DNA of 64,000 bases. Origin: Thermoanaerobaculia bacterium (lineage in GTDB: Bacteria > Acidobacteriota > Thermoanaerobaculia > Multivoradales > Multivoraceae). Below the pieces are notes generated by a model that saw only the letters and a program-made list of their open reading frames with translations, ran no database searches and had not been told where the DNA came from. Both the position numbers and the translations under genes were made by a program. Numbering within the stretch: position 1 is the first letter of the stretch; the number at the start of each line of letters is the position of its first letter. This document shows positions 9,941 to 54,280 of this stretch, one piece after another. The stretch is from positions 2,720,001-2,784,000 of the forward strand of contig OY761158.1 of NCBI GenBank assembly GCA_963664405.1, read 5' to 3'.

Positions 9941-10031
9941 AGAGCGACCAGCAGTCTAGCGCGAGACGCCCCTCATCGTGGCGGGTCAATCGCTCACCCA
10001 ATCCGCGACCGCGTCCTCAAGGCCGCCTGGC

Positions 10032-10793: not shown

Positions 10794-10801
10794 GTTCCAA
10801 T

Positions 10802-15100: not shown

Positions 15101-18100
15101 AAAATCAATCCTCCCCTGGGCGCGGACACGACGTTGCGCTGGCCATCATCGGCATCTCCTGCATCTTCCCCGAGGCAGACAGCCTAGAAGGCTATTGGCG
15201 CAACATCCGCAACGGCGTCGACTCCATCACCGACGTTCCTGACACCCACTGGTCACCGCAGGATTTCTTCAACGCAGATCCCAAGGCGCCGGACATGACC
15301 TACGCGTCTCGTGGTGGCTTCCTGCCGGCGGTGGACTTCAATCCACTGGACTTCGGCATCGCGCCGAACGCATTGGAGGCGACCGATACCGCGCAGCTAC
15401 TTGGACTGTACACCGCACGTCGGGCGCTCATCGACGCGGGCTACGGCCCTGGGCGCGACTTCGACAGGAATCGGGTGAGCGTGGTTTTGGGCGTTACAGG
15501 CACCCTGGAGCTGACGATCTCTCTCGGCGCACGCCTAGGACATCCACTCTGGCGACGCGCACTGGCCGAGTCAGGCGTTCACGGTGAGGTAGCAGATGAC
15601 GTTGTTCGTCGCATCGCAGACTCCTATGTCGAATGGCAGGAGGCGTCCTTCCCTGGGCTGCTTGGCAACGTCGTCGCCGGCCGAATCGCCAACCGGCTGG
15701 ACCTTGGAGGCACCAACTGCGTTGTCGACGCGGCCTGCGCCAGCTCGTTGAGTGCGCTCCACCTGGCATCCCTAGAGCTCGCAGACGGGCGTTGCGATAT
15801 GGCCATCACCGGAGGTGTCGACACGCTCAACGACATCTTCATGTACATGTGCTTCTCGAAGACTCCCGCGCTGAGCCCAACAGGCAACGCAAGGCCGTTC
15901 GACCACGAGGGCGATGGGACGATCCTCGGTGAGGGCGTCGGCATGCTCGTACTCAAGCGCCTGGACGATGCGGTCCGCGACGGCGACCGTATCTACGCCG
16001 AGATCATCGGCCTCGGCACCTCGAGCGACGGCAAGGGCAACGCCATCTACGCGCCGAGCCAGTCGGGCCAGGCCAAGGCTCTTCGTCGCGCCTACGAGCG
16101 CGCAAACGCTGCGCCCGACACCGTCGAGCTGGTTGAGGCCCACGGCACCGGTACGGTCGTCGGTGACGCCGTTGAGTCCAAAGCACTCTCAGCCGTCTAT
16201 CGAGAGAGCCGTGCCGAGGGGACGTGGTGCGCGTTGGGCTCAGTCAAGTCCCAGATCGGCCACACCAAAGCCGCCGCTGGGGCGGCGTCATTGATCAAGG
16301 CGGCAATGGCACTGCACCACAAGGTGCTCCCGCCGACGCTGAAGGTGGAGAAACCGCTACCCCAAGTGGCACCAGGCGCCTCACCCTTCTACGTCAACAC
16401 CGACAAGCGCCCCTGGCTCACACCCTTCGGTCATCCGCGCCGCGCCGCCGTCAGCTCCTTCGGTTTCGGCGGCAGCAACTTTCACTGCCTGCTGCAGGAG
16501 CACGTGAGCGGAGAAGGAGCAGACCTCGACGAACCTGATTGGGACGGCGACGTGCAGATCCTCGCCTTCGGCGCGCCAACACAGCATCGCCTCAAAGAGT
16601 GGTTGCTCAAACTGGGCCAGACGGCGAGCTGGGAGGCCGTGCGCGAGCTCGCCAAGGCCTCCCGCGAGGCCTTCCGTCAGGACGACACCGAGCGCCTCCT
16701 CCTCGTCGTAGAGAGGGGGCAGGGGGCTCCGGCGGACCTGGCGACACGAGCCGAGAGCCTACTCGAGGCCCACACGGAGGCAACGTGGTCGACTCCTGAC
16801 GGTATCTACTACGGACGGGGCCGGCCCGCCGGCGACCTCGCATTCCTCTTTCCGGGGCAAGGCTCCCAATACGTTGGCATGCTGCGCGATCTGGCGTGCC
16901 AGTTCCCCTCGATCAGCTCGTCACTCGAGCTCGCCGACGCCGCTGAGCCGGATAACCGTCTGAGCGACCGCATCTATCCGCATCCTGCCTTCGACGACGA
17001 AGCGCTTCAGCTCCAGGAAAATCTTCTGCGCGACACCCGTTACGCTCAGCCGGCGATCGGAGCCGTGAGTCTGGGCGCCGACAGGCTGTTGCGCTCATTC
17101 GGCGTTGCGCCCGCTGCCACGGCCGGCCACAGTTTCGGCGAGCTCACCGCTCTGTGCACCGCGGGACGCCTGTCCACTGAGGACTTCACCGAGCTCTCGC
17201 GGCTGCGTGGTCGCCTCATGGGCGAGGAGGACGGCGGAAGAGGTGCCATGCTCGCCGTCCGCGCAGGCGTCATGGAGGTCGACAAGATCATCGCCGCAGA
17301 ATCACTCGAGCTCGTCGTGGCAAACCGCAACGCGCCAACCCAGATTGTCCTCTCCGGCGGTACCGCCGAGATCGAACGAGCCGCGGGGATTCTCCGTCTT
17401 CGCCAGATCGACGCCACGCGCCTTCCTGTCTCGGCCGCCTTTCACTCCCCCCTTGTCGCCGCCGCCGCGGGGCCGCTCGCCGCCGCCTTGGAGGAGATCC
17501 AACTGGGCGAGGGCACGGTGCCGGTCTACGCGAACAGCAGCGCCATGCCCTATCCTACCGACGAGCGAGAAGCCAAGGCGCTCCTCGCCGGCCAGCTAGC
17601 CAGCCCTGTTCTCTTCGACGAGCTGATCCGGCGGATGCACAGCGACGGAGTCAGGACTTTCGTTGAGACCGGCCCCCACGCACGCCTCAGCGGACTCGTC
17701 GCTTCCATTCTTGATGGCGAGCCGCATCACGCTTTTGCTCTGGACGCAAGCCATGGGTCGCGCTCGGGAATTCGAGAGCTCGCTCGCGTCCTGGCCCGGA
17801 TCGGCTCGCTCGGCCACGACGTAGCACTGCAACCCTGGGACGCTGCCTTCCGTCCAACTCCCGCGCTGGCTTCAGCCGGACGCGAGGAGCTTAGCTACCG
17901 GGTGGGGGGCGCAAACATCCGGACTCGCAAGAGGAAACCGATGCAAAACGACGAAATCAAGCCAGCACACCTGCCTCCTAGCCCGCGGCGCGCGCCTGCA
18001 GCGGCACCGGAGACGCGGAGCCTTCAAGCGCCACCCTCCCCGACAACCCCCGTTGCCGCTTCTGTGGCAGAAGCCCTACGAATCACCCAGGAGAACATGA

Positions 18101-21100
18101 TCGCTCTCCAACGCCTGCAACAGCAGACGGCCCTGCTGCACCAGCAGTTTCTCGAGGGGCAGAACGCCTCGCAGCAGCATTACAACACGCTGCTCCAGCA
18201 GCAACAGCGCTTTGTCGAGATGTCCCTTGGTCTGCCGATCGGACCGGCACTCCTCGCCGACCCCATGACGAAGCCGACGCGGCCCATACAGGCTCCCGAA
18301 CACCCCGCCGCTACCGTGGCGCCTGCCCCGCTCACCGACGCGATCAGCGAAGCTCCCGCCCAGGCCGAGACGCCGTCAACAACGGCGGTGACGCCGGAGC
18401 CGACGCCCGCCCCCGCGCCAGTGCCGGTCGCCACGGTCGACGTAGCGAAGATCCTGCTTGACATCGTCGCCGAAAAGACAGGCTACCCTGCCGAGGTGCT
18501 CGAGCTCAGCATGGAGCTCGACGCAGACCTTGGCATCGACTCGATCAAGCGGGTTGAGATCCTGTCCGCGCTTCAGGACGAGCTGCCAGACGCGCCCGAA
18601 GTCGCCCCGGACCAGCTCGGCACTCTTGACACCCTCCAGGCACTCCTCGATCTCGTCCCGCAAGACACGGACCTGCCGGCCCCGCGGATCGCCGCCGAAC
18701 CAACTCCGGCGGTTGCGGTGGCGGCTGAAGCGCCCCCGAAGGTGCAGACCCAACGGCCACTGCAGCGCTACGCATTACAATCGCGCGACTTAGGCGCCGC
18801 TCTCGGCGAGGACGCGCCGAGGCCAAAGTCGGCAGCGGCGATCTGGATCACTGACGGCGACGCGGAGCTGGCCTGCGAAATCTCCGCGCTGCTGAGCACC
18901 GAGGGCTACGAGCCACGGGTGGTCTCGGCGGAGTCGCTGAACGGGGCCGTAGAGGAGCCCGTTGCGGGTCTCGTCATCCTTCCTCCGCGCCAGGGCACTA
19001 GTGACGCCGACCTCCTGGGCGTGCTACAGGTCGTACAGGCGGCGGGAAGCGGCCTGCGCGCCACCGGCCGTGATGGCGGTGCATTCCTCGTCAGCGCATC
19101 TCGTCTCGATGGGGCCTTTGGTACCACCGGAGACGATATCGCGGACCCCGTTTCAGGCGGCTTCGCCGGTCTCACCAAGTCGGCTGCCCATGAGTGGCCC
19201 GAGGTGCGGTGCCTGGCACTCGACCTGGCACCTGACCTTAGCGATGCCGACGCTGCCAGCGCCATCGTGGCCGAAATCTTCCGCGTCGGCCCGCCAGAAG
19301 TGGGTTTGAGCGCTGCAGGCCGAACCGGCTTGGAGCTGGTTAGCCGAGAGCTTTCCTCCTCCAATGGCACTCTGCCCCTGCTCGAGGGCGAGGTCGCGGT
19401 GCTGAGCGGTGGCGCAAGGGGTGTAACCGCGGAGGTCGCGCTTGCCCTAGCAAGGTCGTGCCGGCCTACTCTGGTCCTCCTCGGTCGGAGCCCGGCGCCG
19501 GAAAGCGAGCCCGAGTGGCTCGCCGCCCTGGTCACCGAGGCCGAGATCAAGCAGGGCCTCCTCGCCGGCGGTGAGGCGTCCTCGCCCCGCCAGGCCGGCG
19601 AGATCTATGACCGCATCCGTGCAGCGAGAGAGATCCGCAGCAACCTCGAGCGCATGAGCGAGGCGGGGGCGACAGTACGCTATCTATCGGTTGACGTGCG
19701 CGACGCTGCTGGCTTGAGTGACACGCTCTCCTCGATCGCGGCAGAGTACGGCCCCGTCCGCGTGCTGGTGCACGGAGCCGGCGTACTCGAAGACAAGCTC
19801 ATCCTCGAGAAAACCAGCGAGAGCTTCCAGAAGGTCTACGCGCCAAAAGTTGCGGGCCTGCGCAACCTGCTGGAAGCCATCGATCGCGACGCCCTGCGCG
19901 CCCTCGTCCTCTTCAGCTCTTCAACGGCGCGCTACGGCCGCGCAGGCCAGGTGGACTACGCGATCGCCAACGAGGTGCTCAACAAGCTCGCCAAACACGA
20001 GGCCCTGCGGCTTCCTGGTTGCAAGGTCATGAGCCTCAACTGGGGTCCGTGGGAAGGCGGCATGGTCGATCCGTCGTTGAGGACAGTCTTCGCAAACGAA
20101 GGCGTGCCTCTCATCCCTCTCGCCCAGGGGGCCGACCACCTGCTTCGCGAGCTCGCCAGCGACGAGACCGCCGTTGAGCGCCTGGTCCTTGGCCCGGCGT
20201 TGGCAGGTGCCCCGAATCTCACCCATTCGCAAGAGCTCACGAAGTCCGCGGGGAAGGAGCCAGGCGTGTCGTCGACCCTGCCACTGGTAGCGGAAGAGCA
20301 GATCGACGTAGCGAGCTGCCCGTTCCTGCGCTCCCACGTGCTCGACGGTAAGGCGGTGGTCCCCATGGCAATGCTGCCCGAGTGGCTCGCTCACGGCGCA
20401 CTGCATGGCAACCCAGGTCTTGTCTTCCACGGCTGCGACAGCCTCAGCGTCCTCAAGGGTCTGGTCCTCGACACTGATGGCAGCCTACGGTTGAAGATCC
20501 ACGCCGGAGATGCCCGCAAGGACGACGATGGCTACAGGGTTCAGGTTGAGCTGCGCGCTGCACAGAACGACGGCAGGGAATTCCTGTTTGCTCGCGCCGA
20601 GGTTCTGCTCACAGAGAGCCTTCCATCGGAGCAGCCGCGGCTGGTAGCCCCGCAAGGGCCGGCATACGAGAAGAGCGCGGCGGAGACCTACCGCGATCAT
20701 CTCTTCCACGGCCCGGATCTCCAGGGCATAGAGCGAGTGCATGTCTGTTCCCCTGAAGGTGTCGTCGCCGACGCGTCTGCCGCGCCTCCACCTAAGGACT
20801 GGATGGAGCGGCCCTTCCGGCGGCGCTGGCTCACCGATCCATTGACGCTTGACGTCGGGATCCAGTTGCTCACGTTCTGGACGGGGGTGCACAGCGCCGG
20901 CCCCTCCCTGCCTTGCGCAACGGCGAGCTACCGCCAGTACCAGCCCTTTCCCGAGAGCGGCGCCCGCGTTGTGCTCCGCGTCACCAAGAGCGATAAGACC
21001 CGAGCGTTCGGCGATATCGAGTTTCTCGACGCCGATGGGCACCTAGTTGCGCGCTTCGAAGGCTGTGAGAACACCATCGACCCGCGCCTGGTGTCTGCGT

Positions 21101-21138
21101 TCCGTAGCAATCGACTTCCACTGGAAGTCAGCTCCTGA
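15097..21138 (+). CDS. pfaA: PUFA synthase PfaA-like (KS-MAT-ACP-KR-DH), single ACP
   Basis: KS DAACASSL/EAHGTGT/GHTK; MAT FPGQGSQ, GHSFG, AFHS; one ACP LGIDSIKRVE; KR SGGARGVT...YAIAN; C-terminal DH HVLDGKAVVP. Confidence 0.95.
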   Translation: MKNQSSPGRGHDVALAIIGISCIFPEADSLEGYWRNIRNGVDSITDVPDTHWSPQDFFNADPKAPDMTYASRGGFLPAVDFNPLDFGIAPNALEATDTAQLLGLYTARRALIDAGYGPGRDFDRNRVSVVLGVTGTLELTISLGARLGHPLWRRALAESGVHGEVADDVVRRIADSYVEWQEASFPGLLGNVVAGRIANRLDLGGTNCVVDAACASSLSALHLASLELADGRCDMAITGGVDTLNDIFMYMCFSKTPALSPTGNARPFDHEGDGTILGEGVGMLVLKRLDDAVRDGDRIYAEIIGLGTSSDGKGNAIYAPSQSGQAKALRRAYERANAAPDTVELVEAHGTGTVVGDAVESKALSAVYRESRAEGTWCALGSVKSQIGHTKAAAGAASLIKAAMALHHKVLPPTLKVEKPLPQVAPGASPFYVNTDKRPWLTPFGHPRRAAVSSFGFGGSNFHCLLQEHVSGEGADLDEPDWDGDVQILAFGAPTQHRLKEWLLKLGQTASWEAVRELAKASREAFRQDDTERLLLVVERGQGAPADLATRAESLLEAHTEATWSTPDGIYYGRGRPAGDLAFLFPGQGSQYVGMLRDLACQFPSISSSLELADAAEPDNRLSDRIYPHPAFDDEALQLQENLLRDTRYAQPAIGAVSLGADRLLRSFGVAPAATAGHSFGELTALCTAGRLSTEDFTELSRLRGRLMGEEDGGRGAMLAVRAGVMEVDKIIAAESLELVVANRNAPTQIVLSGGTAEIERAAGILRLRQIDATRLPVSAAFHSPLVAAAAGPLAAALEEIQLGEGTVPVYANSSAMPYPTDEREAKALLAGQLASPVLFDELIRRMHSDGVRTFVETGPHARLSGLVASILDGEPHHAFALDASHGSRSGIRELARVLARIGSLGHDVALQPWDAAFRPTPALASAGREELSYRVGGANIRTRKRKPMQNDEIKPAHLPPSPRRAPAAAPETRSLQAPPSPTTPVAASVAEALRITQENMIALQRLQQQTALLHQQFLEGQNASQQHYNTLLQQQQRFVEMSLGLPIGPALLADPMTKPTRPIQAPEHPAATVAPAPLTDAISEAPAQAETPSTTAVTPEPTPAPAPVPVATVDVAKILLDIVAEKTGYPAEVLELSMELDADLGIDSIKRVEILSALQDELPDAPEVAPDQLGTLDTLQALLDLVPQDTDLPAPRIAAEPTPAVAVAAEAPPKVQTQRPLQRYALQSRDLGAALGEDAPRPKSAAAIWITDGDAELACEISALLSTEGYEPRVVSAESLNGAVEEPVAGLVILPPRQGTSDADLLGVLQVVQAAGSGLRATGRDGGAFLVSASRLDGAFGTTGDDIADPVSGGFAGLTKSAAHEWPEVRCLALDLAPDLSDADAASAIVAEIFRVGPPEVGLSAAGRTGLELVSRELSSSNGTLPLLEGEVAVLSGGARGVTAEVALALARSCRPTLVLLGRSPAPESEPEWLAALVTEAEIKQGLLAGGEASSPRQAGEIYDRIRAAREIRSNLERMSEAGATVRYLSVDVRDAAGLSDTLSSIAAEYGPVRVLVHGAGVLEDKLILEKTSESFQKVYAPKVAGLRNLLEAIDRDALRALVLFSSSTARYGRAGQVDYAIANEVLNKLAKHEALRLPGCKVMSLNWGPWEGGMVDPSLRTVFANEGVPLIPLAQGADHLLRELASDETAVERLVLGPALAGAPNLTHSQELTKSAGKEPGVSSTLPLVAEEQIDVASCPFLRSHVLDGKAVVPMAMLPEWLAHGALHGNPGLVFHGCDSLSVLKGLVLDTDGSLRLKIHAGDARKDDDGYRVQVELRAAQNDGREFLFARAEVLLTESLPSEQPRLVAPQGPAYEKSAAETYRDHLFHGPDLQGIERVHVCSPEGVVADASAAPPPKDWMERPFRRRWLTDPLTLDVGIQLLTFWTGVHSAGPSLPCATASYRQYQPFPESGARVVLRVTKSDKTRAFGDIEFLDADGHLVARFEGCENTIDPRLVSAFRSNRLPLEVSS

Positions 21139-21151
21139 TCGGGAGCCGTGC

Positions 21152-24100
21152 GTGAGTGAACGCCTCGCCATAGCCATCGTCGGCTTCGGGGGGGTCTTCC
21201 CCGGCGCCCGGAGCCTGAGGGAGCTCTGGGGAGCCATCGAACGTGGAGAAGATGCCGCCGCCGAGGTTCCAGTCGGGCGTTGGCACCTCGACCCTGACCA
21301 GGCGTATTCGCCTGAGATCGCTGCCGCGGACAGGGTCTACACCCGGCGAGCATGTCTGCTTGAAGACTTCGAGCTCGAGACTGAGAACCTCGCCATCGAC
21401 GCCCACTTCCTTGACCGGCTGGATCCCATGTTCCGGGTCGCGTTGCGCGCTGCGCAGATGGCCGTTGAGGACGCCGGCCCCGAGGCCATCGGGGCTGACC
21501 GCACCGGCGTTATCTTCGGCAATATCGTACTGCCTACGGACGCCGCCTCGGCCATGGCGCTGGCGACCCTTGGAAGGAGCTTCGCGGAGCGCCTTGGAGA
21601 GATTGGCCCGGAGCCGGAAGCCACGGAGCCGTTCAACCGATACGTCGCAGGGTACCCAGCTGGTCTGGTCGCCCACGCCCTGAACCTGCGCGGCGGCAGC
21701 TACACACTGGACGCGGCTTGTGCCTCTTCTCTCTACGCCCTGAAGCTCGCGTGTACCGAGCTGGTGTCGGGCCGGGCGGACGCCATGCTGGCCGGTGGCT
21801 TGTCGCGGCCATCGGCCCTCTACACCCAGATGGGCTTCAGCCAATTGCGGGCTCTTTCTCCGAGCGGCAGGTGTGCTCCCTTCGACCGACGTGCTGACGG
21901 CCTCGTCGTCGGCGAAGGCGCCGGGCTCTTCCTGCTCAAGCGCCTGGCTGACGCGGAGCGCGACGGGCACCGGATCCACGCCGTCATCCGTGGCATCGGC
22001 TTGAGCAACGACGTTGGCGGCAGCCTTCTCGCACCGGACCGCGAGGGCCAGCTCCGCTCCATGCGCGCCGCCTACGAGCAGGCCGGCTGGGCACCCAACG
22101 ATGTCGACCTCATCGAGTGCCACGGCACAGGCACTCCCGCCGGCGACAAGGTGGAGCTCGAGAGCATGCACCAGCTCTGGGGCGACGCGTCTCCCCGAAA
22201 GCGCCATTGCATCATAGGGTCGGTTAAATCAAACGTCGGCCATCTCCTGACCGGAGCTGGCGCGGCTGGGCTGGCGAAGGTCCTACTCGCCCTCGAGGCC
22301 GAGGCCCTGCCACCGACCGCCAACTTCGAGGCACCGCTCGACCCGCGCCTGCGCTCCGGCCCATTCCGCGTCCTTTCCAAGGCTGAGCCATGGACCCGAC
22401 GCTCCGACGGCGCTCCGCGACGTGCCGCCATCAGCGCCTTCGGCTTCGGCGGGATTAACGCCCACTTGCTCCTCGAGGAGTGGCGCTCTAGGTCGCGAGT
22501 GGCCGCCAGCGCGCCACCGCCTCGTCGCGGTGAGGACATCGCCATCGTTGGCATGGACGCGCACTTCGGCCCCTGGGAGGGCCTGCGCGCATTCCAGGAG
22601 CGGGTCCTTGGCGGCGAACCGGAGCTGCAGCCGGAGGCGCCGACGCGATGGTGGGGTGCTACTGAGTGTGACTGGTTCGAAGGCCTCGGGCTTCACGCGA
22701 ACGACTTTCCCGGTCACTACATCAAGGAACTGGAGGTTCCCCAGGGTCGCTTCCGCATCCCTCCAAAGGAGTTGGAGGAGATGCTCCCACAGCAGCTCCT
22801 GATGCTCAACGTGATGGCCAACGCGCTGGAGGACGCGCGTTTCGAGGACGATGAGCGCCTGCGCTCTGGTGTCTTCATCGGGATAGCACTCGACCTCAAC
22901 GCCACCAACTTCCACTTTCGTTGGTCGGTAAGAGAAGGCGTCCGCGCCAACACTGTGCCGCCACTCACCGCCAACCGCACTATGGGCGCACTAGGCGGCA
23001 TCGTCGCCAGCCGCATCGCGCGTGAGTTCCGCATCGGCGGGCCAAGCCACACCATCTCCAGCGAGGAAACCTCAGGCATGCGGGCGCTCGAGGTCGGTAT
23101 CCGGGCGCTGCAAGAGGGTGAGCTTGACAGCTGCCTCGTGGGAGCCGTCGACCTCGCCGGCGACGTGCGCGCCGTACTCGCCACCCACGCGGTCCGCCGC
23201 TACTCCGCAAGCGGGCGGGCTAGGCCCTTCGATGCCGGCGCCGACGGCACCGTAGTTGGCGAGGGAGCCGCAGCCCTCGTTCTCAAGCGTCTCGCGGACG
23301 CAGAGCGTGACGGCGACAGGGTCTACGCCGTGATCCGCGGCTTTGGCGGTGCCTCCGGCAGGGCCGCCCAGCGACCGATGCCAACCGCAGACGGGTATAG
23401 ACGTGCTCTTACGCGTGCTTATGAGGAGGCGGATCTCGATCCGTCGCTGGTCGGATACGTCGAGACCCACGGCAGCGGAGACCCCGTCGAGGACCGCATC
23501 GAGACCGAGGCGCTGTGCTCGTTTTTCGCACCGCGCCACCGTGCCCCCGTACGCCACCTCGGCGGCGTGAAGGCAGACGTTGGCCACGCAGGTGCCGCGG
23601 CGGCCCTGGCCTCTGTTGTCAAGACAGCCCTCTGCCTCTACCAAGAGGTGCTGCCCAGCGTACGCGGGCTGCGCACGGTACGTGCTGACCTCTCACCGAG
23701 AGACTTTCTGCTTGCAAGAGAGCCCCAGTACTGGCTACGAAATCGAGCAGACGGCCCGCGCCGCGCCGGCGTCAGTGCTCTCGGCGTTGATGGCGGCTGC
23801 TGCCACGTGGTGCTCGAGGAGCACGAGGAGAGCAAGGGCGCTGCCACCCTCGCACACCGGCGCCAACCCCTTGGCGCGCGCAGTGAAGCTCTCTTCGCCG
23901 TTGAAGGGGACGACGTCGGGCAGCTGGAAGCCCGTCTGGTCGCACTCGCCACTCACGCGCACGAGGCCGAGCCCATCGAGCTCCTGGCTCACGACTGGTT
24001 CCGCAAGATAGGTCAGCGACCCGACGCCAAGCTCGGCCTGGCTCTGGTAGCGCGATCTCGGGAAGAACTGCTCCGACTCGTGGAATCGGCCGGCGCAATG

Positions 24101-47488: not shown

Positions 47489-47552
47489 CGGACGCAGCAG
47501 GTCTCTAGTAGAAGTCTAAGGAAACGCCTCCCGTCCCGAACATTTCTGGAGG

Positions 47553-47942
47553 CTAGTTCGTGATGTCGCTGGTGACACTGCCACCGCGCACCGGCATGTA
47601 GAGCTTGTACCAGTTCCTTTGCGCCTGACTGCCGGCGTAGTCGGCCAGGGCCTTCTCGCTCTCGAACTCCATGACGAAGGCTGCGTCTCTGGTCTGTGAC
47701 TTGATGCTTCTCAGCCAGACGCGAGAAATACCATCGTATTCGGCGGCTAGGGTTTCGACGCCTTCGAGCGCTTTGGCGATCGCGTCTTCGGAGGCGCCCT
47801 CGGCCCAATTGAGAGTGACGACGTGGATCACCGATTTCGGCTTCTCGACACCGGCGGCGCCGAGCACAACACCCGCGGCGAAAAATGCAGCGGCGGCGGG
47901 TACCAAGAAGAGAGATTGTCTCGAGCGTTTCCTAGCAATCAT
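47553..47942 (-). CDS. Dabb (stress-responsive A/B barrel) family exported protein
   Basis: Signal peptide; 'VIHVVTLNW', 'AFVMEFESEKALADY'. Confidence 0.75.
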   Translation of the reverse strand: MIARKRSRQSLFLVPAAAAFFAAGVVLGAAGVEKPKSVIHVVTLNWAEGASEDAIAKALEGVETLAAEYDGISRVWLRSIKSQTRDAAFVMEFESEKALADYAGSQAQRNWYKLYMPVRGGSVTSDITN

Positions 47943-48002
47943 GTTCGACCCCCTTTGTTTGCCAGCCGACGGCTGGAGTGCGTCCCATAGGTGGCTCTCC
48001 CC

Positions 48003-48248
48003 TCCGAGTATTGGTTGATCCGTCTCCCGGAGCGAATAGGAAGCAGCACCGAGTGCGCCGTCCTCGGCGCCAAAATGCAACTAGCCGTATGAAATGATAG
48101 CAATCATTTCTGGAGGCTAGGAGCGTGTCCGAGTATTCGGCCAGAGCCGTTTCCCGGAGCGAATAGGAAGCAACGCCTGAGTGCGCCGTCCTCGGCGCCT
48201 AAGGGCAGCTAGCCGGAGGAAATGATAGCGATCATTTCAGGAGGCTAG
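48003..48248. repeat. Two tandem ~120-128-bp CTAG-ended repeat units (MITE/REP-like); partial copy at 47541-47556
   Basis: Shared CCCGGAGCGAATAGGAAGCA, GAGTGCGCCGTCCTCGGCGCC, and terminal dyad CTAGCC..GAAATGAT.ATCATTTC..GGCTAG. Confidence 0.9.
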
Positions 48249-49633
48249 TCCACTAATCGGGTCTCAGGATAGGCGGCAAACCAACCGAACCAGAAGGCGC
48301 GCTGCGCCGGTAGCCGGTGGCACACGCGACCGTCCTCAGCGAGGAGCCGGTCCTCGTCGAGCGTCCATGCATCTCCGGCGGCGTCAACCACTCTCCGATC
48401 CTGGTCCCACTCCGAGAAGCGCACACCGCCTGTGCTGTAGACGCGGTTTGCGCCCGAGGCGTCGGTGAGAACGACGATCTCCAGATCGCCGATCCGATCG
48501 TGGTGGACAGGCTCTTTCGCCAAGAGCTCGGCGGCGATCGCGAGTGGCTCAGCCTCATCGCCACCGAGTACGAGAGTAAGAACTTCGTCTTTGTTCTTGA
48601 GACGGCGATCGAGCTTGGGGACGTTGAACATCAGCCTGTCAGTCGAGAAGTACTCTCGGTAGGCCGCGCCCTCTGAGTAGTCTCGGTTGTGGCCGGTGTC
48701 TTTAGAAAGCACCAGCGTCTGAGGGTGACGGCGACGCCATTCAGCCCAGGTTGTGGTGACGATGGCGCGCCCTCTGAGCTGGATTCCCTTGCCGACCAGT
48801 GGGCCGATCACCGGCCGCCCCCAGAGAGTGCTCCACAGCGATTGAGTGGCCCGGTCGTACATGAGTTTGTTGGACCGATAGAGAAAGCCGCTGGTACCGA
48901 CCTCGTGCTCAACACCCTCGTAGGTCGTTTCGTAAAGGATGGCGGTGCCGCAGAGCGTGCAATAGACACCGGCGAGCGGGATGCCGCCGACTACGTCGGT
49001 GAACATTTCGTGCCATGCCAGAATGCGCTTGGGATAGGCGCGGATGTCGTCGTTGATCGCAATGCCGAAGACGACGTTGTCGTCGCCGAGATAGTCTGCC
49101 TCGGCGGCCGAAATCATCTTGGGCCTGCGCAGTGGTGGAATTCCGTCTTGAAGCACTCCGCCCCAGCGCACTTCGTCGAGGCGGATCGTAGCTGCGCGAT
49201 CGTTGGCGAAGTAGGCGGCAAAGCGTGGGTCGAGGTTGCGATAGAGCCGATGCATGAATTCGGCGTAGTCGGGATGGGGGCGATACGGCTGCGCCCACAG
49301 CCACTCGTACCAGGCGTCCATGTCGTTGCCGAAAGACCGCCGTGTTCCCTCCTCCAGGGCCGAGATCGTGAAACCTGCCACCTCCGGTTCTCTTGCGAAG
49401 TGAAAAACATCGATCAGCATCGGGGCGTATCCCGGTTGCCAGGTCTTGCGGATCTTCCTCATCACAGGAGCCCAATGGCCCGGCTCGTTGACGAGGAGTG
49501 AGAAGAACTCATCCGGTGTCGCAAGCTCAAGCTCGGCGGCGCCGGCGGTAAGCGCGGGGCAAGGGAAGAGCGAAGAGACAGCCGAGGCGGCGACGAGAAG
49601 GAGCGTAAACCGTGGACGGATAGGTGAGCTCAC
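48245..49633 (-). CDS. DUF3179 domain-containing protein (CxxC form), exported
   Basis: 'WGGVLQDGIPPL', 'RAYPKRILAWHE', 'YCTLCGT', 'SGFLYRSNKLMYDRATQSLW', 'FWFGWFAAYPET'. GTG at 49633. Confidence 0.9.
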   Translation of the reverse strand: MSSPIRPRFTLLLVAASAVSSLFPCPALTAGAAELELATPDEFFSLLVNEPGHWAPVMRKIRKTWQPGYAPMLIDVFHFAREPEVAGFTISALEEGTRRSFGNDMDAWYEWLWAQPYRPHPDYAEFMHRLYRNLDPRFAAYFANDRAATIRLDEVRWGGVLQDGIPPLRRPKMISAAEADYLGDDNVVFGIAINDDIRAYPKRILAWHEMFTDVVGGIPLAGVYCTLCGTAILYETTYEGVEHEVGTSGFLYRSNKLMYDRATQSLWSTLWGRPVIGPLVGKGIQLRGRAIVTTTWAEWRRRHPQTLVLSKDTGHNRDYSEGAAYREYFSTDRLMFNVPKLDRRLKNKDEVLTLVLGGDEAEPLAIAAELLAKEPVHHDRIGDLEIVVLTDASGANRVYSTGGVRFSEWDQDRRVVDAAGDAWTLDEDRLLAEDGRVCHRLPAQRAFWFGWFAAYPETRLVD

Positions 49634-49655
49634 GGAGTCGGATCGGCGCCCGCAA

Positions 49656-51008
49656 CTAGCCGGAACGCGCCGAAAGTACGGGTGGAAGGTGGCAGGCGGC
49701 CTCGCTCCAGCTCGAGCCGGCGTCGGCGGAGGCGAAGAGCTGCCCCGAAGTCGCGCCGAAGTAAAGGCCGAGGGGCTTGCCCCCATCGTGACAGAAGGCC
49801 TGGCGAAGGATGGTCAAGAAAGCGGGGGGAGAAGGCAAGCCGCTCGTGTGCGGCTGCCAGGTGTTGCCTCGGTCGCGGGTCTCGTAGACGCGCATCTTCG
49901 CCTCGGCGGTGATCCGATCTTCATCCGAGTTGAGTGGGATCACCCACGCGCGATCGGGGTCGCGCGGGTCGGCTACGAGCGGAAAGCCGAAGTCGGCCGG
50001 CAGCCCGCCTTCGCTGCCGATGTCGATCCAGGTCTCGCCGGCATCGTCGGAGCGATAGACGCCGCCGTGAAATTGCATATAGAAGGTGCTGGGCTGAGCC
50101 GGAGATCGATGGAGGTTGTGCACACACTGATCGGGGGCGTCGTCTCGAGCCCCTTCGGGGAGGTAGCGCGAGATCAAGCCCTTGCCGGCTCGATGCCAGC
50201 TTCTCCCGCCGTCCTCCGTATGCCAGACGCCGGCGGCGGAGATGCCCACCGACAGCCGAGAGGCGTCGCCGGGCCAGGTGCAGATCGAGTGCAGGGCGAG
50301 ACCACCCATCCCGCCTTCCCAGGATGGACGACTTGGGACGTTCCAGAGTGCCTCGTTGAGGGCCCAACTGTGACCGCCGTCGCGGCTCTCGAAGAGCGCG
50401 GCCGGCGCGACTCCTGCCAGCACCTGCCCTTCGGTCTCTCCAGGGACTACGGACCATATTCGCTCGAGCGCCTGTCCCGAATCCTCTGGAAATGCCGGGC
50501 CGTCACACTCCTGCCATTCGCCGTCAGGTGATGCGGCCCAGAACAGGTGGGGGCCGAACTGGCCGTGCACGACGCTGGCGAAGATGCGACCCGTGCGCAG
50601 ATCCCGCATCGCATAGGGCACTTCCTGGCCGCCGAAGGCGCGGTGGGTGATCTCGAGCTCGCCGCCGCGGGAGCCACGAAGAACGAAGAGACCCTTCTTG
50701 GTACCGACGAGAAGCTCGATGTCGGCACCCGCTGCGTGGTCGGGCTCGGATCCTCCTGAGATCGCGGGGATCACCCAGACCTCGTCCCCGTCTTCCACGG
50801 CGGTGTCTAGCTCCGCGCGATCCTGGTTGACGAACACATTGACGTGCCGGCGGATGCGCTCTTGTTCGTCGAGGATCCAGCCTTTCAATCGGGGGTGACG
50901 ACTCAACAGGTCTTGGAGTACCGCCGCGACCGAGGCTCCGTCGACCTCGACTCGGTCGTCTCCGTCGACGAGCTCGCGCAACGCCGCGGTCAAAACGACT
51001 TTCGCCAT
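49656..51008 (-). CDS. MoaD/ThiS ubiquitin-like domain fused to a BNR/Asp-box beta-propeller
   Basis: RBS GGAGG, ATG 51008. 'RRHVNVFVN...VWVIPAISGG' continues in frame into 'LLVGTKKGLF', with repeated S.DGG.SW Asp-boxes. Confidence 0.9.
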   Translation of the reverse strand: MAKVVLTAALRELVDGDDRVEVDGASVAAVLQDLLSRHPRLKGWILDEQERIRRHVNVFVNQDRAELDTAVEDGDEVWVIPAISGGSEPDHAAGADIELLVGTKKGLFVLRGSRGGELEITHRAFGGQEVPYAMRDLRTGRIFASVVHGQFGPHLFWAASPDGEWQECDGPAFPEDSGQALERIWSVVPGETEGQVLAGVAPAALFESRDGGHSWALNEALWNVPSRPSWEGGMGGLALHSICTWPGDASRLSVGISAAGVWHTEDGGRSWHRAGKGLISRYLPEGARDDAPDQCVHNLHRSPAQPSTFYMQFHGGVYRSDDAGETWIDIGSEGGLPADFGFPLVADPRDPDRAWVIPLNSDEDRITAEAKMRVYETRDRGNTWQPHTSGLPSPPAFLTILRQAFCHDGGKPLGLYFGATSGQLFASADAGSSWSEAACHLPPVLSARSG

Positions 51009-51033
51009 GCAGCCAACCTCCCTCAGGAAGAAA

Positions 51034-51582
51034 TCATGGTAGCAGGACGGCTTCGAGCTGGATTCCGAGACCATCGGCGATGCGGTTGGCGTAGGCGTAA
51101 TAGGCGACGACCTCGGCGATGTGGAGGACGTCTTGGTCGCTGAAGCCGTCGTGGAGCAAGGCCTCCACATCCTTGCGCTCCATCGCGCCGGGAGTACGGG
51201 TGAGCTTTTCGGCGTAGACGAGCACTTCGCGTTTCTTGGAGGAAAGGCGCGCACTGCGAAAGTCCGCCTCGATCTGCTGCAGCAGAAGGTCATCCCGGAG
51301 CAACCGGCGCAGACCGCGCCGATGGTGCGCGATTCAATAGTGGCAGGCGTTGGCGCGGCTGACTACCAGCGCGATCATCTCGCGGTCTACCTTGCGCAGC
51401 GAGCGAGTGCCGGTCATCACCGCCCGATAGAGCTCGTAGTGGGCGCTCAGGCCCGCGGGGTGCAGCGAGTGCACGCTCATAATCTGATCGAGCGCTCCCG
51501 TCGAGGGATCGGCGACGGCGTGGTAGAGCTCGAGAAGAGTGCCTTCGGCGTTGCTCGGGTCGATGGTCCGAATCCAGGGCAC
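51034..51582 (-). CDS. AhpD/CMD-like peroxidase-related selenoprotein (CxxU), 182 aa with Sec83
   Basis: ORFs 51334-51582 and 51034-51303 are one frame separated by a single TGA: REMIALVVSRANACHY-U-IAHH (AhpD CxxC position). SECIS-like hairpin follows. Confidence 0.88.
51305..51321 (-). promoter_or_regulatory. Putative bacterial SECIS element
   Basis: CGGCGC-GGTCT-GCGCCG at +13..+29 after the TGA; apical GGUCUGC resembles the E. coli fdhF SECIS tip. Confidence 0.75.
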
Positions 51583-51585
51583 GAT

Positions 51586-52515
51586 CTATTCGGCCCTGAC
51601 GTTGCCACGGGCTCGATCGCGCTCACGCTGCGCCCGCCGCCGCTCTCCCTTCGCTCGTAGCGCCTCGCGGTTGGAGTCGTCGACGCGCGAGTAGGAGTCG
51701 CGCCAGTCCGGATCTCCTGGCCAGACGAAGAGCGACTGCACGGTGGTGCGAGGTTGCCGCGCGGACTCGAGCAGCTCCAGCCCGAGCTCGACGATGGTGC
51801 GCTGCATCTCGGGCTGCCAGGGCAGGCCGGCGGAGTTACCCAACGGGAAGTCATTGAAGACGAACCGGGGCACGCCGCAGTGCTCGACGATGTCGCGGGC
51901 AGAGCCCAGGATCACGGTTGGCAGGCCGTTGGCCTCGAGGTGCCGAGCCGTCAAACTGACGGTCTGATGACAGACCGGTCAGAGTGGGACCAGGATTACC
52001 ACATCGGCACCGTCTTCGCGGCAGCGGTGCAAGATCTCGGGCGCGTCGTTCTCGACAGTCCGGCGGTGGCTGTACTCCGTTGGGACGCCGTGACAGCGAT
52101 CGGCGAGGCGGCCGATGCGGCCTTCCTCGGCGAGCTCTGTCAAGCGGTGCACCGGCAGAAAGGAGTCCAGGTCGTCGGTGTTTGTCACCTCCTTGTGCCA
52201 GCTCAGGTCGTCGGTGTAGAGCGAAGGGGGCTCGCCGGAAGAAAAGGAGTGAACTCGGCGTAGGGGTCTGGGATCACCCACCTTCCAACCCGGTGGAGAC
52301 GGCTCGTTGGCGGTCGTGATCAGAGACACCACCGACTCTGAAAGAGGTTTGTTGAGAGGGGTGAGGGGTACGTTCTGGTGATAGGCCCAGCGATAGGGAC
52401 GCTCGAAGCCCTGAGCTTCGTAATGTTCTCGGGTTCTGTCGATGTAGCGGACGAAAGTTGTGCGCGTCGTCGCCGGGGTCAGCTCGCGTGGCTTTTCCGA
52501 GAGTGCTTGGCTCAT
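51586..52515 (-). CDS. GrdB/PrdB-like selenoprotein B family protein (UxxC), 309 aa with Sec179
   Basis: ORFs 51979-52515 and 51586-51954 join through one in-frame TGA: ADVVILVPL-U-PVCHQTVSLTARHLEANGLPTV...VPRFVFNDFPLG. Confidence 0.9.
51948..51978 (-). promoter_or_regulatory. Putative bacterial SECIS element
   Basis: CCGTCA-GTT-TGACGG with loop G at +23. An alternative stem CGGTCTG-TCAT-CAGACCG lies immediately after the UGA. Confidence 0.7.
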
Positions 52516-52642
52516 GCTGCTTTCCTGCGTTCGGTCGCTCCGGCCATGTTAAACCGGCTCGGCCACTGTTGCCCAGCGGACGCGACCCTGGTTGGCGAGA
52601 GCCTGTGCTAGCGTCGCACTCTTGCCCTCAAGGAGAAGTGTG

Positions 52643-54280
52643 ATGTGGAAGACGATTCGCCTCTTGGCGCTGCTCTGTGTTTGCCTGGCTTGTAGCCCTT
52701 CAGAGGAGGCCGCTTTGGACCCTCAACCTGCCTCCCTTGGTCCGGTCCTCGAGACCGCCAATGGACAATTGGAGGGAGACTGGGTCGACGAGACGCAGGA
52801 CGTTTTGGTCTTCCTCGGCGTGCCCTTCGCGAAGCCCCCGGTCGGCGACCTTCGCTTTCGGCCCCCGCAGCCGCCGCAATCCTGGGAAGGCACTCGCTCG
52901 GCGAATCGCTTCAGTCTGCCGTGCTGGCAGCGAGTCTCACCCGAGACCTCGATCTATAGCCGTGGAGAGTTCGAGCGCAGCGAAGACTGTCTCTACCTGA
53001 ATCTGTGGACGCCTGCACGGAGCCGAGAGGAACGACTGCCGGTGATGGTGTGGTTCCACGGCGGCGGCCACCGGAGCGGTCACGCCAACTCACCGACGTT
53101 CGACGGCACCGCGCTGGCGCGAAAGGGCGTCGTGCTGGTTGCGGTCAATTATCGTCTGGGCGCCTTGGGCTTCATGGCCCATCCGGCCCTCACCGCGGAA
53201 TCGGCAAACCGCTCCTCGGGCAACTACGGCATCCTCGACAAGATCGCATCGCTCGAGTGGGTAAGGAACAATGCCAGCGCCTTCGGCGGCGACCTCGACA
53301 ACGTCACCATCTTCGGTCAGTCCGCCAGCTCGGCGAGTGTGTGTACGCTGATGGCGTCGCCGCTCGCACACGGGCTTTTCCACCGGGCGATCGGCCATTC
53401 AGGGAGCTGTATAGGGCCTCGGATGGAGCTTGCCGGCGAGGGCGGAGCCCACAGTCTCGGGCTCAACTTGGCGGCTGCGCTCGGAGTCGAGGGAGAGGGC
53501 GCCGAGGCGACTGCCGCGTTGCGGGAGCTCGAGCCTGAAGCGATTCTCGACGCTTCGCAGGGTGGCACTACTCGCAGCCCCGGCATCCAGATCGACGGCT
53601 GGGTGGTGCCCCGGCAGATGCGAGAGATCTTCGCTGCCGGCGAGCACAACCGAGTGCCAATGATCGCTGGCTGGATGGCGGATGAAGGCAAGGGGCTCTA
53701 TTCGACTCTGCAGGGACGGCCCCGGCCGCAGCTCGAAACCTGGATCGAGACTCGCTACGGTGCTCATGGCAACGCTCTCTTGGCCGAATACGGCCCCGAG
53801 ATCGAGGCGTCTACAAGAGCTGCAGAACAGGCGATCCTAGGCGATCAGATCTTCGGTTGGGGAACCCGCGCCTGGGTCCGCGAGGTCGAAGGGGCGGGCG
53901 ATCCCGCTTTCCTCTACTTCTTCAGCCAAGCGCCTCCGGTCTTCCTGCTCTACCTTCCCGATCGTCCGGCGCTCGAACTTGCCGAGGGCCCGCGCAGCTA
54001 CGGCGCCTATCACTCCGGCGACCTGCCCTACGCTTTCGCCAATCAGCACCTGGTCGGCTACGGCTGGAACGAGACGGATCGCGAGATCTCTCGCGTCATG
54101 TCGCAGTACTGGGTGAATTTCGCCCGCAGCGGCGACCCCAACGGTGAAGGGCTTCCGGCTTGGCCTCGCTACGACACAGAAGGCGACCAGGCGATCGAGC
54201 TCGGTGCCGAGATTGGTGCCGTCTCCGGTGCGATCAAGGAGAAGCTCGATATCTTCGACGCCATAGCCGGCTCAGGGTAG
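52643..54280 (+). CDS. Type-B carboxylesterase (para-nitrobenzyl esterase-like), lipoprotein
   Basis: Lipobox CLAC; GVPFA.PPVGDLRF, SEDCLYLN, HGGG, GQSAS, 'YHSGDLPYAF'. Confidence 0.92.
   Translation: MWKTIRLLALLCVCLACSPSEEAALDPQPASLGPVLETANGQLEGDWVDETQDVLVFLGVPFAKPPVGDLRFRPPQPPQSWEGTRSANRFSLPCWQRVSPETSIYSRGEFERSEDCLYLNLWTPARSREERLPVMVWFHGGGHRSGHANSPTFDGTALARKGVVLVAVNYRLGALGFMAHPALTAESANRSSGNYGILDKIASLEWVRNNASAFGGDLDNVTIFGQSASSASVCTLMASPLAHGLFHRAIGHSGSCIGPRMELAGEGGAHSLGLNLAAALGVEGEGAEATAALRELEPEAILDASQGGTTRSPGIQIDGWVVPRQMREIFAAGEHNRVPMIAGWMADEGKGLYSTLQGRPRPQLETWIETRYGAHGNALLAEYGPEIEASTRAAEQAILGDQIFGWGTRAWVREVEGAGDPAFLYFFSQAPPVFLLYLPDRPALELAEGPRSYGAYHSGDLPYAFANQHLVGYGWNETDREISRVMSQYWVNFARSGDPNGEGLPAWPRYDTEGDQAIELGAEIGAVSGAIKEKLDIFDAIAGSG

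Follow-up and report, generated by a model that had tools for sequence, protein, structure and literature searches.

Two probable selenoprotein genes of catalogued families in a four-gene locus of a Thermoanaerobaculia bacterium

Four closely packed genes on the minus strand of a 64,000-nucleotide stretch of contig OY761158.1 (here called the window), from a Thermoanaerobaculia bacterium, raise two questions: whether in-frame TGA codons hide selenoproteins among them, and whether the four belong together as one system. A preliminary description had favored both. We consider, at a probability of roughly 85%, that two of the four genes are genuine selenoprotein genes from catalogued families, and that the four-gene arrangement is a recent, lineage-specific juxtaposition and not a conserved system. 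The finding would mainly be an annotation correction, in that two genes split by gene callers at UGA are whole selenoprotein genes. It reveals no new system, and its wider value is a lead on PrdB-like genes located beside small redox selenoproteins, the stand-alone PrdB-like family being one of the most abundant among environmental selenoproteins.

Two reading frames with an internal UGA

Translation with table 11 yielded four short ORFs on the minus strand (51979-52515, 51586-51954, 51334-51582, and 51034-51303). TGA read-through merges these into a 309-aa frame at 51586-52515 and a 182-aa frame at 51034-51582, both on the minus strand and each with one in-frame TGA, just as the preliminary description had proposed. 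The longer frame was identified from the read-through, profile matches, and homologues as a PrdB-like (GRDB-superfamily) gene of 309 codons with the redox motif U179-P-V-C182 (VILVPL-U-PVCHQ around the Sec). Its UGA at 51979-51981 (minus strand), the predicted codon for Sec179, aligns with a Cys of homologues. The shorter frame was identified from read-through and profiles as an AhpD-like (TIGR01926/CMD) gene of 182 codons with a GTG start, a TGA stop, and the motif C80-H-Y-U83 (ANACHY-U-IAHH). Its UGA at 51334-51336 (minus strand) was assigned to Sec83 from the Cys/TGA alignment of relatives.

In homologues of both proteins, Cys or TGA was found at the predicted Sec site, which bears out the claim that each TGA falls on a redox Cys position. 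The sequence LCPVCHQ was invariant in all 17 full-length PrdB-like homologues, and the Sec codon is replaced by TGC or TGT in two orthologues from related genomes. Exactly one in-frame TGA was present in 68 of the 73 PrdB-like matches listed across 61 related genomes, and among 80 PrdB-like loci drawn from many phyla, 75 had TGA as the Sec codon. The Sec83 site was TGA in 13 and Cys in 5 of 18 aligned AhpD-like rows, with the Cys-form paralogues reading CFYC, CYYC, CSYC, or CDYC. One in-frame TGA, at the CxY-U site, was common to the 12 AhpD-like loci retained, which include that of the window and span 49-99% identity. Full-length database homologues of the AhpD-like protein have C at this position, apart from six with W or L.

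The PrdB-like protein shares a homologous C-terminal region and the Sec in U-x-x-C with PrdB and GrdB of Clostridia (TIGR04483, TIGR01917, PF07355). It differs from them in being stand-alone, in having no conserved partner, and in scoring only 87.4 bits against the PrdB model TIGR04483, below the equivalog threshold of 300. Matches to the GrdB models TIGR01918 (E 1e-6) and TIGR01917 (E 1.3e-6) were likewise below cut-off; homology to the GRDB superfamily is detectable, with U-x-x-C at the conserved site. No Pfam match was obtained for the window copy at E <= 0.01, and four PrdB-like paralogues in the genome exceed the PF07355 cut-off. The profiles PF09338 (PrdA/GrdE) and PF04723 (GrdA) matched nothing in the genome, which is 97% complete, nor in 14 control genomes, so their silence does not amount to absence of these proteins. 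A PDB sequence search with the PrdB-like profile gave no match at E <= 1, and a Foldseek search of PDB with an AlphaFold2 model (pLDDT 78, pTM 0.80) gave none at E <= 0.001. VIA-align wide matched the model to generic Rossmann-like or periplasmic-binding/LacI-type alpha/beta folds only (best Z 10.4, rmsd 3.2 Å, 140 residues). As far as a predicted model can tell, these matches carry nothing specific on function.

An environmental UxxC selenoprotein family named 'proline reductase PrdB' was catalogued by Zhang, Fomenko & Gladyshev (2005, PMC1088965) and Zhang & Gladyshev (2008, PMC2398784, Table 2). According to the available text of these papers, environmental bacteria have the family in abundance, in both Sec and Cys forms. 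We found no essential difference between this family and the window gene, which shares the Sec-first UxxC, the distant PrdB/GRDB similarity, the Sec/Cys forms, and the splitting at UGA by gene callers; the identity is by motif, domain match, and description, not by alignment with the published sequences.

The AhpD-like protein scored 128.4 bits against TIGR01926 'peroxidase-related enzyme' (cut-off 81.8), also matched Pfam CMD, and scored 38.9 bits against the ahpD_dom model TIGR00778 (cut-off 27.8). With its CMD core, it resembles the CxxU AhpD-like selenoprotein (COG2128/TIGR01926) of marine selenoproteomes. The CxxU aligns with the CxxC of paralogues, which is also the motif of Mycobacterium AhpD. 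The window protein lies far under the cut-off of the true AhpD model TIGR00777 (16.6 bits against 191.95), and an assignment as AhpD orthologue was rejected on this score.

Under the bSECIS criteria of Zhang & Gladyshev from 2005, a stem-loop is said to follow the UGA shortly, with a G in its apical loop. Hairpins of this type were found after both TGAs, with loops (GUG/CGUGA in the PrdB-like gene and GGUCU in the AhpD-like gene) starting 17-18 nt after the UGA. The AhpD-like hairpin (51303-51323, minus strand), CGGCGC-GGUCU-GCGCCG with two outer pairs, was identified from fold energy and covariation; it has a predicted energy of -13.7 kcal/mol with the two extra pairs, and its loop begins 18 nt after the UGA. 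Across 12 sequences, 73% of cells pair, and pair 18-30 varies at synonymous sites (GC in three, CG in two, and AU, UA, and GU in one each). The covariation score was reached by none of 500 shuffles. Two registers were found in the PrdB-like gene (51948-51967, minus strand). One is a window-specific hairpin, CCGUCA/UGACGG, with a GUU loop (20-34 after the U of UGA; -7.6 kcal/mol), and the other is a family-wide register, CAGAC...GUCUG (15-31), whose loop contains GUG and starts 17-18 nt beyond the UGA. This family-wide register pairs in 83% of cells over 11 sequences (pair 15-31 being UA in six and CG in four) and in 84.7% over 70 distinct sequences, against 15-45% with a shifted partner. Pair 18-28 is GC in 62 and AU in 7, and 58 of 59 Ser codons read AGU. 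Both Cys-form PrdB-like orthologues lack the hairpin. The preliminary description was correct that G-looped hairpins stand at SECIS distance after both TGAs, and they are conserved and covarying, but the GUU-loop register in the PrdB-like gene is not the one conserved in the family. Single-sequence fold z-scores of the two hairpins were unremarkable (-1.4 and -0.1); on the sequences compared, the support for them comes from cross-genome comparison and not from single-sequence folding.

The Sec machinery, whose presence had been left to be confirmed, is encoded in the genome. We identified selA (423 bits), selB (340 bits), and selD (362 bits, with one TGA), all above curated cut-offs, together with a tRNA-Sec (72 bits) that ARAGORN reported as tRNA-SeC with anticodon tca. 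Because of the Cys/Sec pairing, the TGA conservation, the covarying hairpins, and the complete Sec machinery, both TGAs are read here from sequence as selenocysteine codons at redox Cys positions. That they are instead true stops, in genes that are split or decaying and give four short proteins or none, is extremely improbable: table 11 does produce four ORFs, database entries hold the halves as separate proteins, and the single-sequence z-scores are not significant, but dozens of genomes from different phyla share the TGA at this codon and conserve the half downstream of it in frame, Cys substitutes for it in homologues, the hairpin covaries, and no component of the Sec machinery is missing. 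As selenoprotein genes, both would have their internal UGA decoded as selenocysteine by SelB and tRNA-Sec, steered by the hairpin about 17-18 nt downstream. Judging by their motifs and by existing knowledge of GrdB/PrdB and AhpD, both proteins are most likely thiol/selenol oxidoreductases that cycle via a Se-S bond between the Sec and a Cys two residues off.

The MoaD-propeller and DUF3179 genes

The third gene (49656-51008, minus strand) was identified by Pfam, NCBIfam, and PDB profile searches as a fusion of a MoaD/ThiS (CysO/SAMP1-like) domain with a 7-bladed Asp-box propeller that belongs to the 3b7f family. The ThiS domain (residues 4-86; PF02597 at 45.3 bits, cut-off 22.5) is a beta-grasp that ends in AISGG and is followed by a BNR/Sortilin propeller. 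The PDB profile search returned 3b7f (E 1.7e-76), and for the N-terminal domain 4n6e_B, 3dwg_C, and SAMP1. In 15 fused homologues, the I and both G of ISGG are invariant and the S is present in 14. The Gly-Gly (residues 85-86) is internal and leads into a linker and the propeller, unlike the free C-terminus that sulfur carriers of this family offer to an E1-like enzyme for adenylation and thiocarboxylation; split forms elsewhere end in GG-TGA. The window copy has the same two domains and internal ISGG as the known MoaD/ThiS-Asp-box propeller module (PDB 3b7f 'YP_299179.1 family'; CysO/SAMP1-type carriers) and is distinct in its neighbours only. A literature search for a link between MoaD and BNR propellers found no paper describing one.

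The fourth gene (48245-49633, minus strand) encodes a DUF3179 protein (PF11376, E 3e-71, 240.6 bits, cut-off 27) in the Cys form, with C-T-L-C at 48950-48961 and a probable N-terminal signal peptide as judged by eye. Its orthologues have no TGA, and a shorter paralogue family has one. The genome also has a Sec-type DUF3179 paralogue of its own, in which the TGA falls opposite the first Cys of CTLC. The available text of PMC9312934 and PMC13188914 describes a DUF3179 selenoprotein family (UxxC/T), with which the window protein shares the Pfam domain and the position of the first Cys, matching Sec. In contrast to the TGA-containing paralogues, the window copy and its orthologues are Cys-form and longer (about 460 aa). 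The domain matches and the C-T-L-C agree with the preliminary description of a MoaD-propeller fusion and a CxxC DUF3179 gene. What it had presented as known about PrdB-like UxxC, AhpD-like CxxU, and DUF3179 selenoproteins is likewise in line with PMC1088965, PMC2398784, PMC9312934, and PMC13188914, as far as their available text goes; the PrdB-like and AhpD-like families have been known since 2005, and DUF3179 is also a published selenoprotein family.

The four same-strand genes are separated by gaps of 3, 25, and 22 nt, as had been reported, provided that the DUF3179 gene starts at GTG 49633; an alternative in-frame ATG at 49786 would overlap the preceding gene. The sequence GAGGGAGG is located upstream of the MoaD-propeller ATG. 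Co-transcription of the two selenoprotein genes with the MoaD-propeller and Cys-form DUF3179 genes is probable, and translational coupling of the PrdB-like and AhpD-like genes across the 3-nt gap is possible. An Rfam scan of 47500-53500 at E <= 10 gave chance-level matches only and no SECIS model match. A promoter consensus scan found no promoter-like site, terminator-like sites were at chance level, and the sequencing runs listed for the locus include no RNA run. The tight same-strand packing fits a functional operon in the host lineage, and non-conservation elsewhere is no proof of non-function.

Distribution of the four genes in other genomes

The preliminary description had suggested that the four genes constitute an undescribed, dedicated Se/S redox relay, in which reducing equivalents or S/Se from two Sec enzymes would reach an exported thiol protein, DUF3179, by way of a MoaD-type carrier. 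Consistent with this, the genes are packed on one strand, all four products carry redox or carrier motifs (UxxC, CxxU, GG, and CxxC), DUF3179 has Sec-containing relatives, and near-identical strains and one metagenome contig (L183) preserve the gene order. We searched for the cluster at 89 PrdB-like loci and 91 other MoaD-propeller loci. Neither the 9 orthologous PrdB-like loci of related genomes nor the 80 sampled across many phyla included any of the other three genes. The same was true of the 79 MoaD-propeller loci from metagenomes, and none of the 12 MoaD-propeller loci in relatives had a PrdB-like or DUF3179 gene; many comparison contigs were short, and some neighbours may have been missed in these counts. 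The cluster was seen only in L183, which is 94-95% identical, and in near-identical strains. Its recurrence in other genomes, on which the relay proposal had been staked beforehand, was not observed outside the immediate lineage, and neither was recurrence in several unrelated lineages, the mark of a conserved multi-gene system.

Further evidence also argues against the relay. The PrdB-like, AhpD-like, and DUF3179 orthologues are scattered in related genomes; in one of these (G009), distances of more than 0.4 Mb separate the three on a single contig. Contigs of two near-identical strains, from two sequencing runs belonging to two studies, lack 1064 nt of the MoaD-propeller gene and retain its three neighbours. 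The MoaD-propeller family is large and self-contained (more than 6,900 matches, about 60% identity) with varied neighbours, and clustering of neighbours, with ORFs in high-GC DNA chosen by GC3, revealed no conserved partner, the commonest occurring at no more than 11 of 80 PrdB-like loci and no more than 14 of 92 MoaD-propeller loci. No E1, JAMM, or molybdopterin genes are located nearby. By eye, the DUF3179 protein seems exported, and no signal peptide was noticed in the other three products. We consider the relay very unlikely; on the sequences compared, the four genes are distributed independently of one another.

Possible pairing of the PrdB-like and AhpD-like genes

A narrower proposal limits the functional pairing to the first two genes, with the C-x-x-U AhpD-like protein as dedicated selenol partner of the U-x-x-C enzyme, its reductant or group acceptor, by analogy with GrdB and GrdA or thioredoxin. 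According to the available text of PMC13188914, GrdA, with its CxxU, is presumed to interact with GrdB. The two genes are 3 nt apart, and a second PrdB-like/AhpD-like pair was found in the same genome at 5.776 Mb, although its genes are convergent and hence not an operon. The two families lie 4.4 kb apart in another genome (G040), and a CMD-family CxxU gene with a TGA is directly upstream on the same strand at 4 of 80 PrdB-like loci (Rhodospirillales/Reyranella). All six own-family genomes with an AhpD-like orthologue (at least 59% identity) also have a PrdB-like orthologue, but these genomes are kin and not independent. Against the pair, it was seen at none of the 9 related-genome orthologue loci and is missing at 74 of the 80 loci, and CMD-profile matches occurred at 6 of 89 PrdB-like and 3 of 92 control loci, with no clear enrichment. 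The repeated adjacency, twice in this genome and at four Rhodospirillales/Reyranella loci, hints at some link between the families; a functional pair is nevertheless improbable.

The same doubt applies to a broader suggestion, for which the odds are similarly low, that orphan PrdB-like U-x-x-C proteins are halves of two-protein selenium redox couples, with a small AhpD/CMD-fold C-x-x-U protein replacing GrdA or thioredoxin. If this were true, the window pair, the second genomic pair, and the Rhodospirillales/Reyranella CMD(CxxU)-PrdB-like pairs would be independent traces of the partnership, and they would offer a first entry point to what the PrdB-like family, known since 2005, does. Published selenoprotein operons include grdA-grdB, prdB-prdC, Prx/SelW, and Prx-like/AhpD-like pairs (PMC13188914, PMC2398784). 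The window pair resembles them in having two adjacent redox selenoprotein genes on one strand, and differs in that it is not among the pairs named in the available text of these papers and is unconserved beyond close relatives.

Also in favor of a pairing, four of the five PrdB-like paralogues in the genome adjoin another redox selenoprotein gene. Two of these neighbours, a DsbA-like protein and an AhpC-TSA fused to DsbD_N, have signal-peptide-like N-termini (by eye), and are therefore unlikely partners of a cytoplasmic enzyme. The genome carries at least 21 selenoprotein genes, counting recognisable families only, and some of the clustering may reflect co-regulation or shared history.

A rough screen of the whole genome for in-frame TGA codons close to a Cys returned 75 candidates, clear false positives included. 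Two of the latter lie in the window: the candidate at 10099 is the stop of an IS6-like transposase, and that at 17304 is antisense to a polyketide-synthase-like gene.

A compact minus-strand locus

With translation table 11, the minus strand between 51034 and 52515 reads as four short ORFs, and TGA read-through merges them into two single frames. The upstream frame is a PrdB-like gene (51586-52515, 309 codons) with a TGA at 51979-51981 (...DVVILVPL-U-PVCHQTVSL...). The second is an AhpD-like gene (51034-51582, 182 codons, GTG start) with a TGA at 51334-51336 (...SRANACHY-U-IAHHRRGL...). On the same strand lie the MoaD-propeller gene (49656-51008, 450 codons), in which a ThiS/MoaD domain at residues 4-86 ends in AISGG and is followed by a BNR/Sortilin-type propeller, and a DUF3179 gene (48245-49633) that carries C-T-L-C and has an in-frame ATG at 49786 as an alternative start. 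The gaps between the four genes are 3, 25 and 22 nt, and GAGGGAGG sits ahead of the ATG of the third gene. The preliminary description had reported two TGA-broken genes packed closely with a MoaD-propeller fusion and a DUF3179 gene; since frames, domains and gaps all match, that observation is correct at the coordinates given. The genes elsewhere in the window around the cluster have no relation to it: carboxylesterase, PQQ dehydrogenase, EamA, MaoC, PRPP-synthetase-like and Dabb.

Directly downstream of the DUF3179 stop codon, at 48040-48250, we found two tandem copies of an intergenic repeat of ~130 nt, each holding a palindrome with 8-bp arms, GAAATGAT-N4-ATCATTTC. The repeat unit gives 223 blastn matches, and 103 exact copies of the palindrome are present in the 6.78-Mb genome, frequently arranged in tandem. 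The repeat is also very deep in the compared metagenome contigs. The repeats look like a family of REP/MITE-like elements, and the transcription unit may have its 3' end here.

Selenocysteine codons and known selenoprotein families

The genome of the window (one contig, 6.78 Mb, 97% complete) encodes the full selenocysteine (Sec) machinery, with selA (423 bits), selB (340 bits), selC (tRNA-Sec, 72 bits, anticodon tca) and selD (362 bits, with one in-frame TGA of its own) all found. Searches together with a rough in-frame-TGA screen recognised at least 21 selenoprotein genes. These comprised 5 PrdB-like, at least 5 AhpD/CMD-type, at least 5 thioredoxin-fold W-U-P-x-C, 2 UGSC-containing, and one each of DsbA-like, SelD and DUF3179 genes. 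A C-F-Y-U AhpD-related protein was also among the candidates. The crude genome-wide screen returned 75 candidates, false positives included; two false positives lie in the window, namely two tandem IS6-like transposase frames (9651-11567, minus strand) and a very large polyketide/PUFA-synthase-like gene (15097-22227, plus strand), both family names being assigned by eye.

On comparative grounds, both TGAs of the locus are selenocysteine codons. In the PrdB-like gene the TGA stands at a Cys position, as the preliminary description had proposed: the motif LCPVCHQ is invariant in 17/17 full-length database homologues, and the window reads LUPVCHQ there. A PrdB-like match was present in 41 of the 61 related genomes, and among the 73 matches listed from them, 68 contain a single in-frame TGA, one contains two and another four lack it. 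We also compared 80 PrdB-like loci from many phyla, including Dehalococcoidia, Myxococcota, Binatia, Reyranella and Acidimicrobiia. The codon at the Sec site was TGA in 75, TGT in one and TGC in one, and the remaining three fell outside the search pattern.

The PrdB-like family has a hairpin after the TGA, (U/C)CAGAC-CGUGA-GUCUG(A/G). Across 11 sequences, 83% of cells pair and the closing pair varies (UA:6, CG:4). Among 70 different sequences taken from those 80 loci, 84.7% of cells pair, compared with 15-45% once the 3' partner is displaced. At pair 18-28 both sides have changed (GC:62, AU:7), and AGU serves as the Ser codon within the stem in 58 of 59 cases. The two Cys-form orthologues (L041 and L042) do not form this hairpin. 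In the window copy, two synonymous changes bring this family-wide register down to -4.0 kcal/mol, and the same two changes create a GUU-looped CCGUCA/UGACGG hairpin of -7.6 kcal/mol. The hairpin seen earlier in the single sequence thus exists, but the register conserved in the family is a different one.

The AhpD-like gene gave a similar picture. One in-frame TGA, at C-x-Y-U, was present in 12/12 retained AhpD-like loci, a set that spans 49-99% identity and includes the locus of the window, and in 18 aligned relatives the site was TGA in 13 and Cys in 5 (CFYC, CYYC, CSYC, CDYC), in agreement with the proposed Cys/TGA pairing. Database matches were mostly C-terminal halves of 100 aa, that is, genes cut at the UGA. 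Among 13 full-length homologues the site was C in 8, W in 4 and L in 1, and W at this position could reflect translation of a TGA with a different genetic code. The hairpin is CGNCGC-GGUCU-GCGNCG, its loop beginning 18 nt past the UGA. In 12 sequences 73% of cells pair, one stem pair between two synonymous third positions occurs in GC, CG, AU, UA and GU forms, and the covariation score was reached by 0/500 shuffles. The hairpin claimed for this gene is thereby borne out, the window copy folding at -13.7 kcal/mol. Single-sequence folding of the two TGA regions gave z = -1.4 and -0.1, which is not significant; the cross-sequence comparisons were significant. The Rfam scan gave no model matching the hairpins.

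No TGA was found in the DUF3179 gene of the window or its orthologues. Many relatives and the genome of the window also have a shorter DUF3179 paralogue family with a single TGA, which falls opposite the first Cys of C-T-L-C in the alignment.

Both genes belong to known selenoprotein families, and the window's selenoprotein genes are further members of these. 'Proline reductase PrdB' (UxxC) and 'AhpD-like' (CxxU; COG2128/TIGR01926) entered the lists of environmental selenoprotein families in 2005 and 2008, with 42 and 27 genes, respectively, in Tables 1-3 of PMC1088965, and 235 and 299 genes, with Cys homologues, in Table 2 of PMC2398784. DUF3179 (UxxC/T) is among the selenoprotein families in PMC9312934 and PMC13188914. 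The family background given in the preliminary description agrees with the relevant parts of these four papers. The 'Selenoprotein operon' section of PMC13188914 gives grdA-grdB, prdB-prdC, frhA-frhD-hdrA, Prx/SelW and Prx-like/AhpD-like pairs; the PrdB-like/AhpD-like pair is not named in its passages on operons.

By profile comparison, the PrdB-like protein is a distant GRDB-superfamily member and not a PrdB. Its TIGR04483 score was 87 bits, below the cut-off of 300, and the window copy had no Pfam match at E <= 0.01. PF09338 (PrdA/GrdE) and PF04723 (GrdA) had no match in this genome, nor in any of the 14 control genomes, so the lack of a match does not demonstrate absence. No solved structure was detectable by sequence, and an AlphaFold2 model (pLDDT 78) resembles generic Rossmann-like alpha/beta folds only. 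The AhpD-like protein exceeds the TIGR01926 cut-off (128 bits vs 81.8) but fails the true AhpD model.

Recurrence of the cluster and neighbours of the PrdB-like gene

We surveyed recurrence by taking each gene in turn as an anchor and inspecting its neighbours. Around PrdB-like orthologues in related genomes, the retrieved flanking DNA contained none of the AhpD-like, MoaD-propeller and DUF3179 genes (0/9 loci, two of the contigs measuring only 5-6 kb). In other phyla, 0/80 PrdB-like loci had any other cluster gene within ±6 kb, and no neighbour family appeared in more than 11 of the 80. MoaD-propeller loci in relatives had a PrdB-like or DUF3179 gene in 0/12 cases and an AhpD-like gene in one, 2 kb off and divergent. 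Among 80 MoaD-propeller loci from metagenomes, one had an AhpD-like gene; this 1,584-nt contig (L183) encodes proteins 94-95% identical to those of the window and comes from essentially the same lineage. None of the other three genes was found at the remaining 79. The neighbours of the MoaD-propeller gene were unrelated, none of them present at more than 14 of 92 loci (hydrolase, WS/DGAT, sigma factor, EamA, LpxC, formamidase and others). In related genomes, the four genes have orthologues that are either widely separated or on separate contigs; on one contig of the related genome G009, the PrdB-like, AhpD-like and DUF3179 genes are at 1.38, 3.30 and 2.84 Mb.

Gene order is kept in near-identical contigs of the public runs X8 and X12. 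The public runs X9 and X10 belong to two studies, and there one contig connects 49856 directly with 50921, so that 1064 nt (49857-50920) of the MoaD-propeller gene is gone while the other three genes remain. Because of the anchor surveys, the dispersed orthologues and this deletion, we conclude that the cluster does not recur outside the immediate lineage, and the four-part Se/S relay system put forward in the preliminary description is not supported. In the X9 and X10 contigs, identity with the window is about 99% on the DUF3179 side but about 93% on the AhpD/PrdB side, which suggests a mosaic history.

A smaller unit would be a redox couple of the PrdB-like U-x-x-C enzyme and a C-x-x-U protein of the AhpD/CMD fold. 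Four of the five PrdB-like paralogues in the genome immediately adjoin another redox selenoprotein gene: the AhpD-like gene (51034-51582) for the window copy; a convergent AhpD-like selenoprotein gene, downstream of ThiC, at 5.776 Mb (L046); a DsbA-like Q-U-P-Y-C selenoprotein gene at 5.575 Mb (L044); and an AhpC-TSA + DsbD_N, W-U-P-Y-C selenoprotein gene at 6.329 Mb (L047). The fifth, at 6.356 Mb (L045), precedes a sodium:solute symporter gene, which does not encode a selenoprotein. Among the 80 loci from other phyla, four, from Rhodospirillales/Reyranella, have a CMD-family gene that carries a TGA in C-x-x-U immediately upstream of the PrdB-like gene on the same strand (L141:3323-3907, L146:4868-5977, L148:1936-2748 and L152:5430-5993). 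However, CMD-family profiles match 6/89 PrdB-like loci vs 3/92 control loci, and two of the neighbouring selenoproteins look exported. We therefore consider such a couple quite improbable.

The MoaD-propeller fusion

The propeller part matches PDB 3b7f (E 1.7e-76), a 7-bladed Asp-box propeller of the 'YP_299179.1 family' in the description given by PMC2716378, and the N-terminal domain matches CysO, SAMP1 and 4n6e_B. The fusion belongs to a very large family, with 6,925 matches at E <= 0.001, the best 120 of which mostly share about 60% identity along their entire length. In 15 aligned members, the I, G and G of the ISGG motif are invariant and S is present in 14. Carrier and propeller are adjacent genes in other relatives. 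At loci in two related genomes (L074 in G004, L078 in G043), the carrier terminates in ...SGG and a TGA, after which the propeller goes on in the same frame, representing either two in-frame genes or stop-codon read-through. These loci show that the change between fused and split forms takes place precisely at the Gly-Gly.
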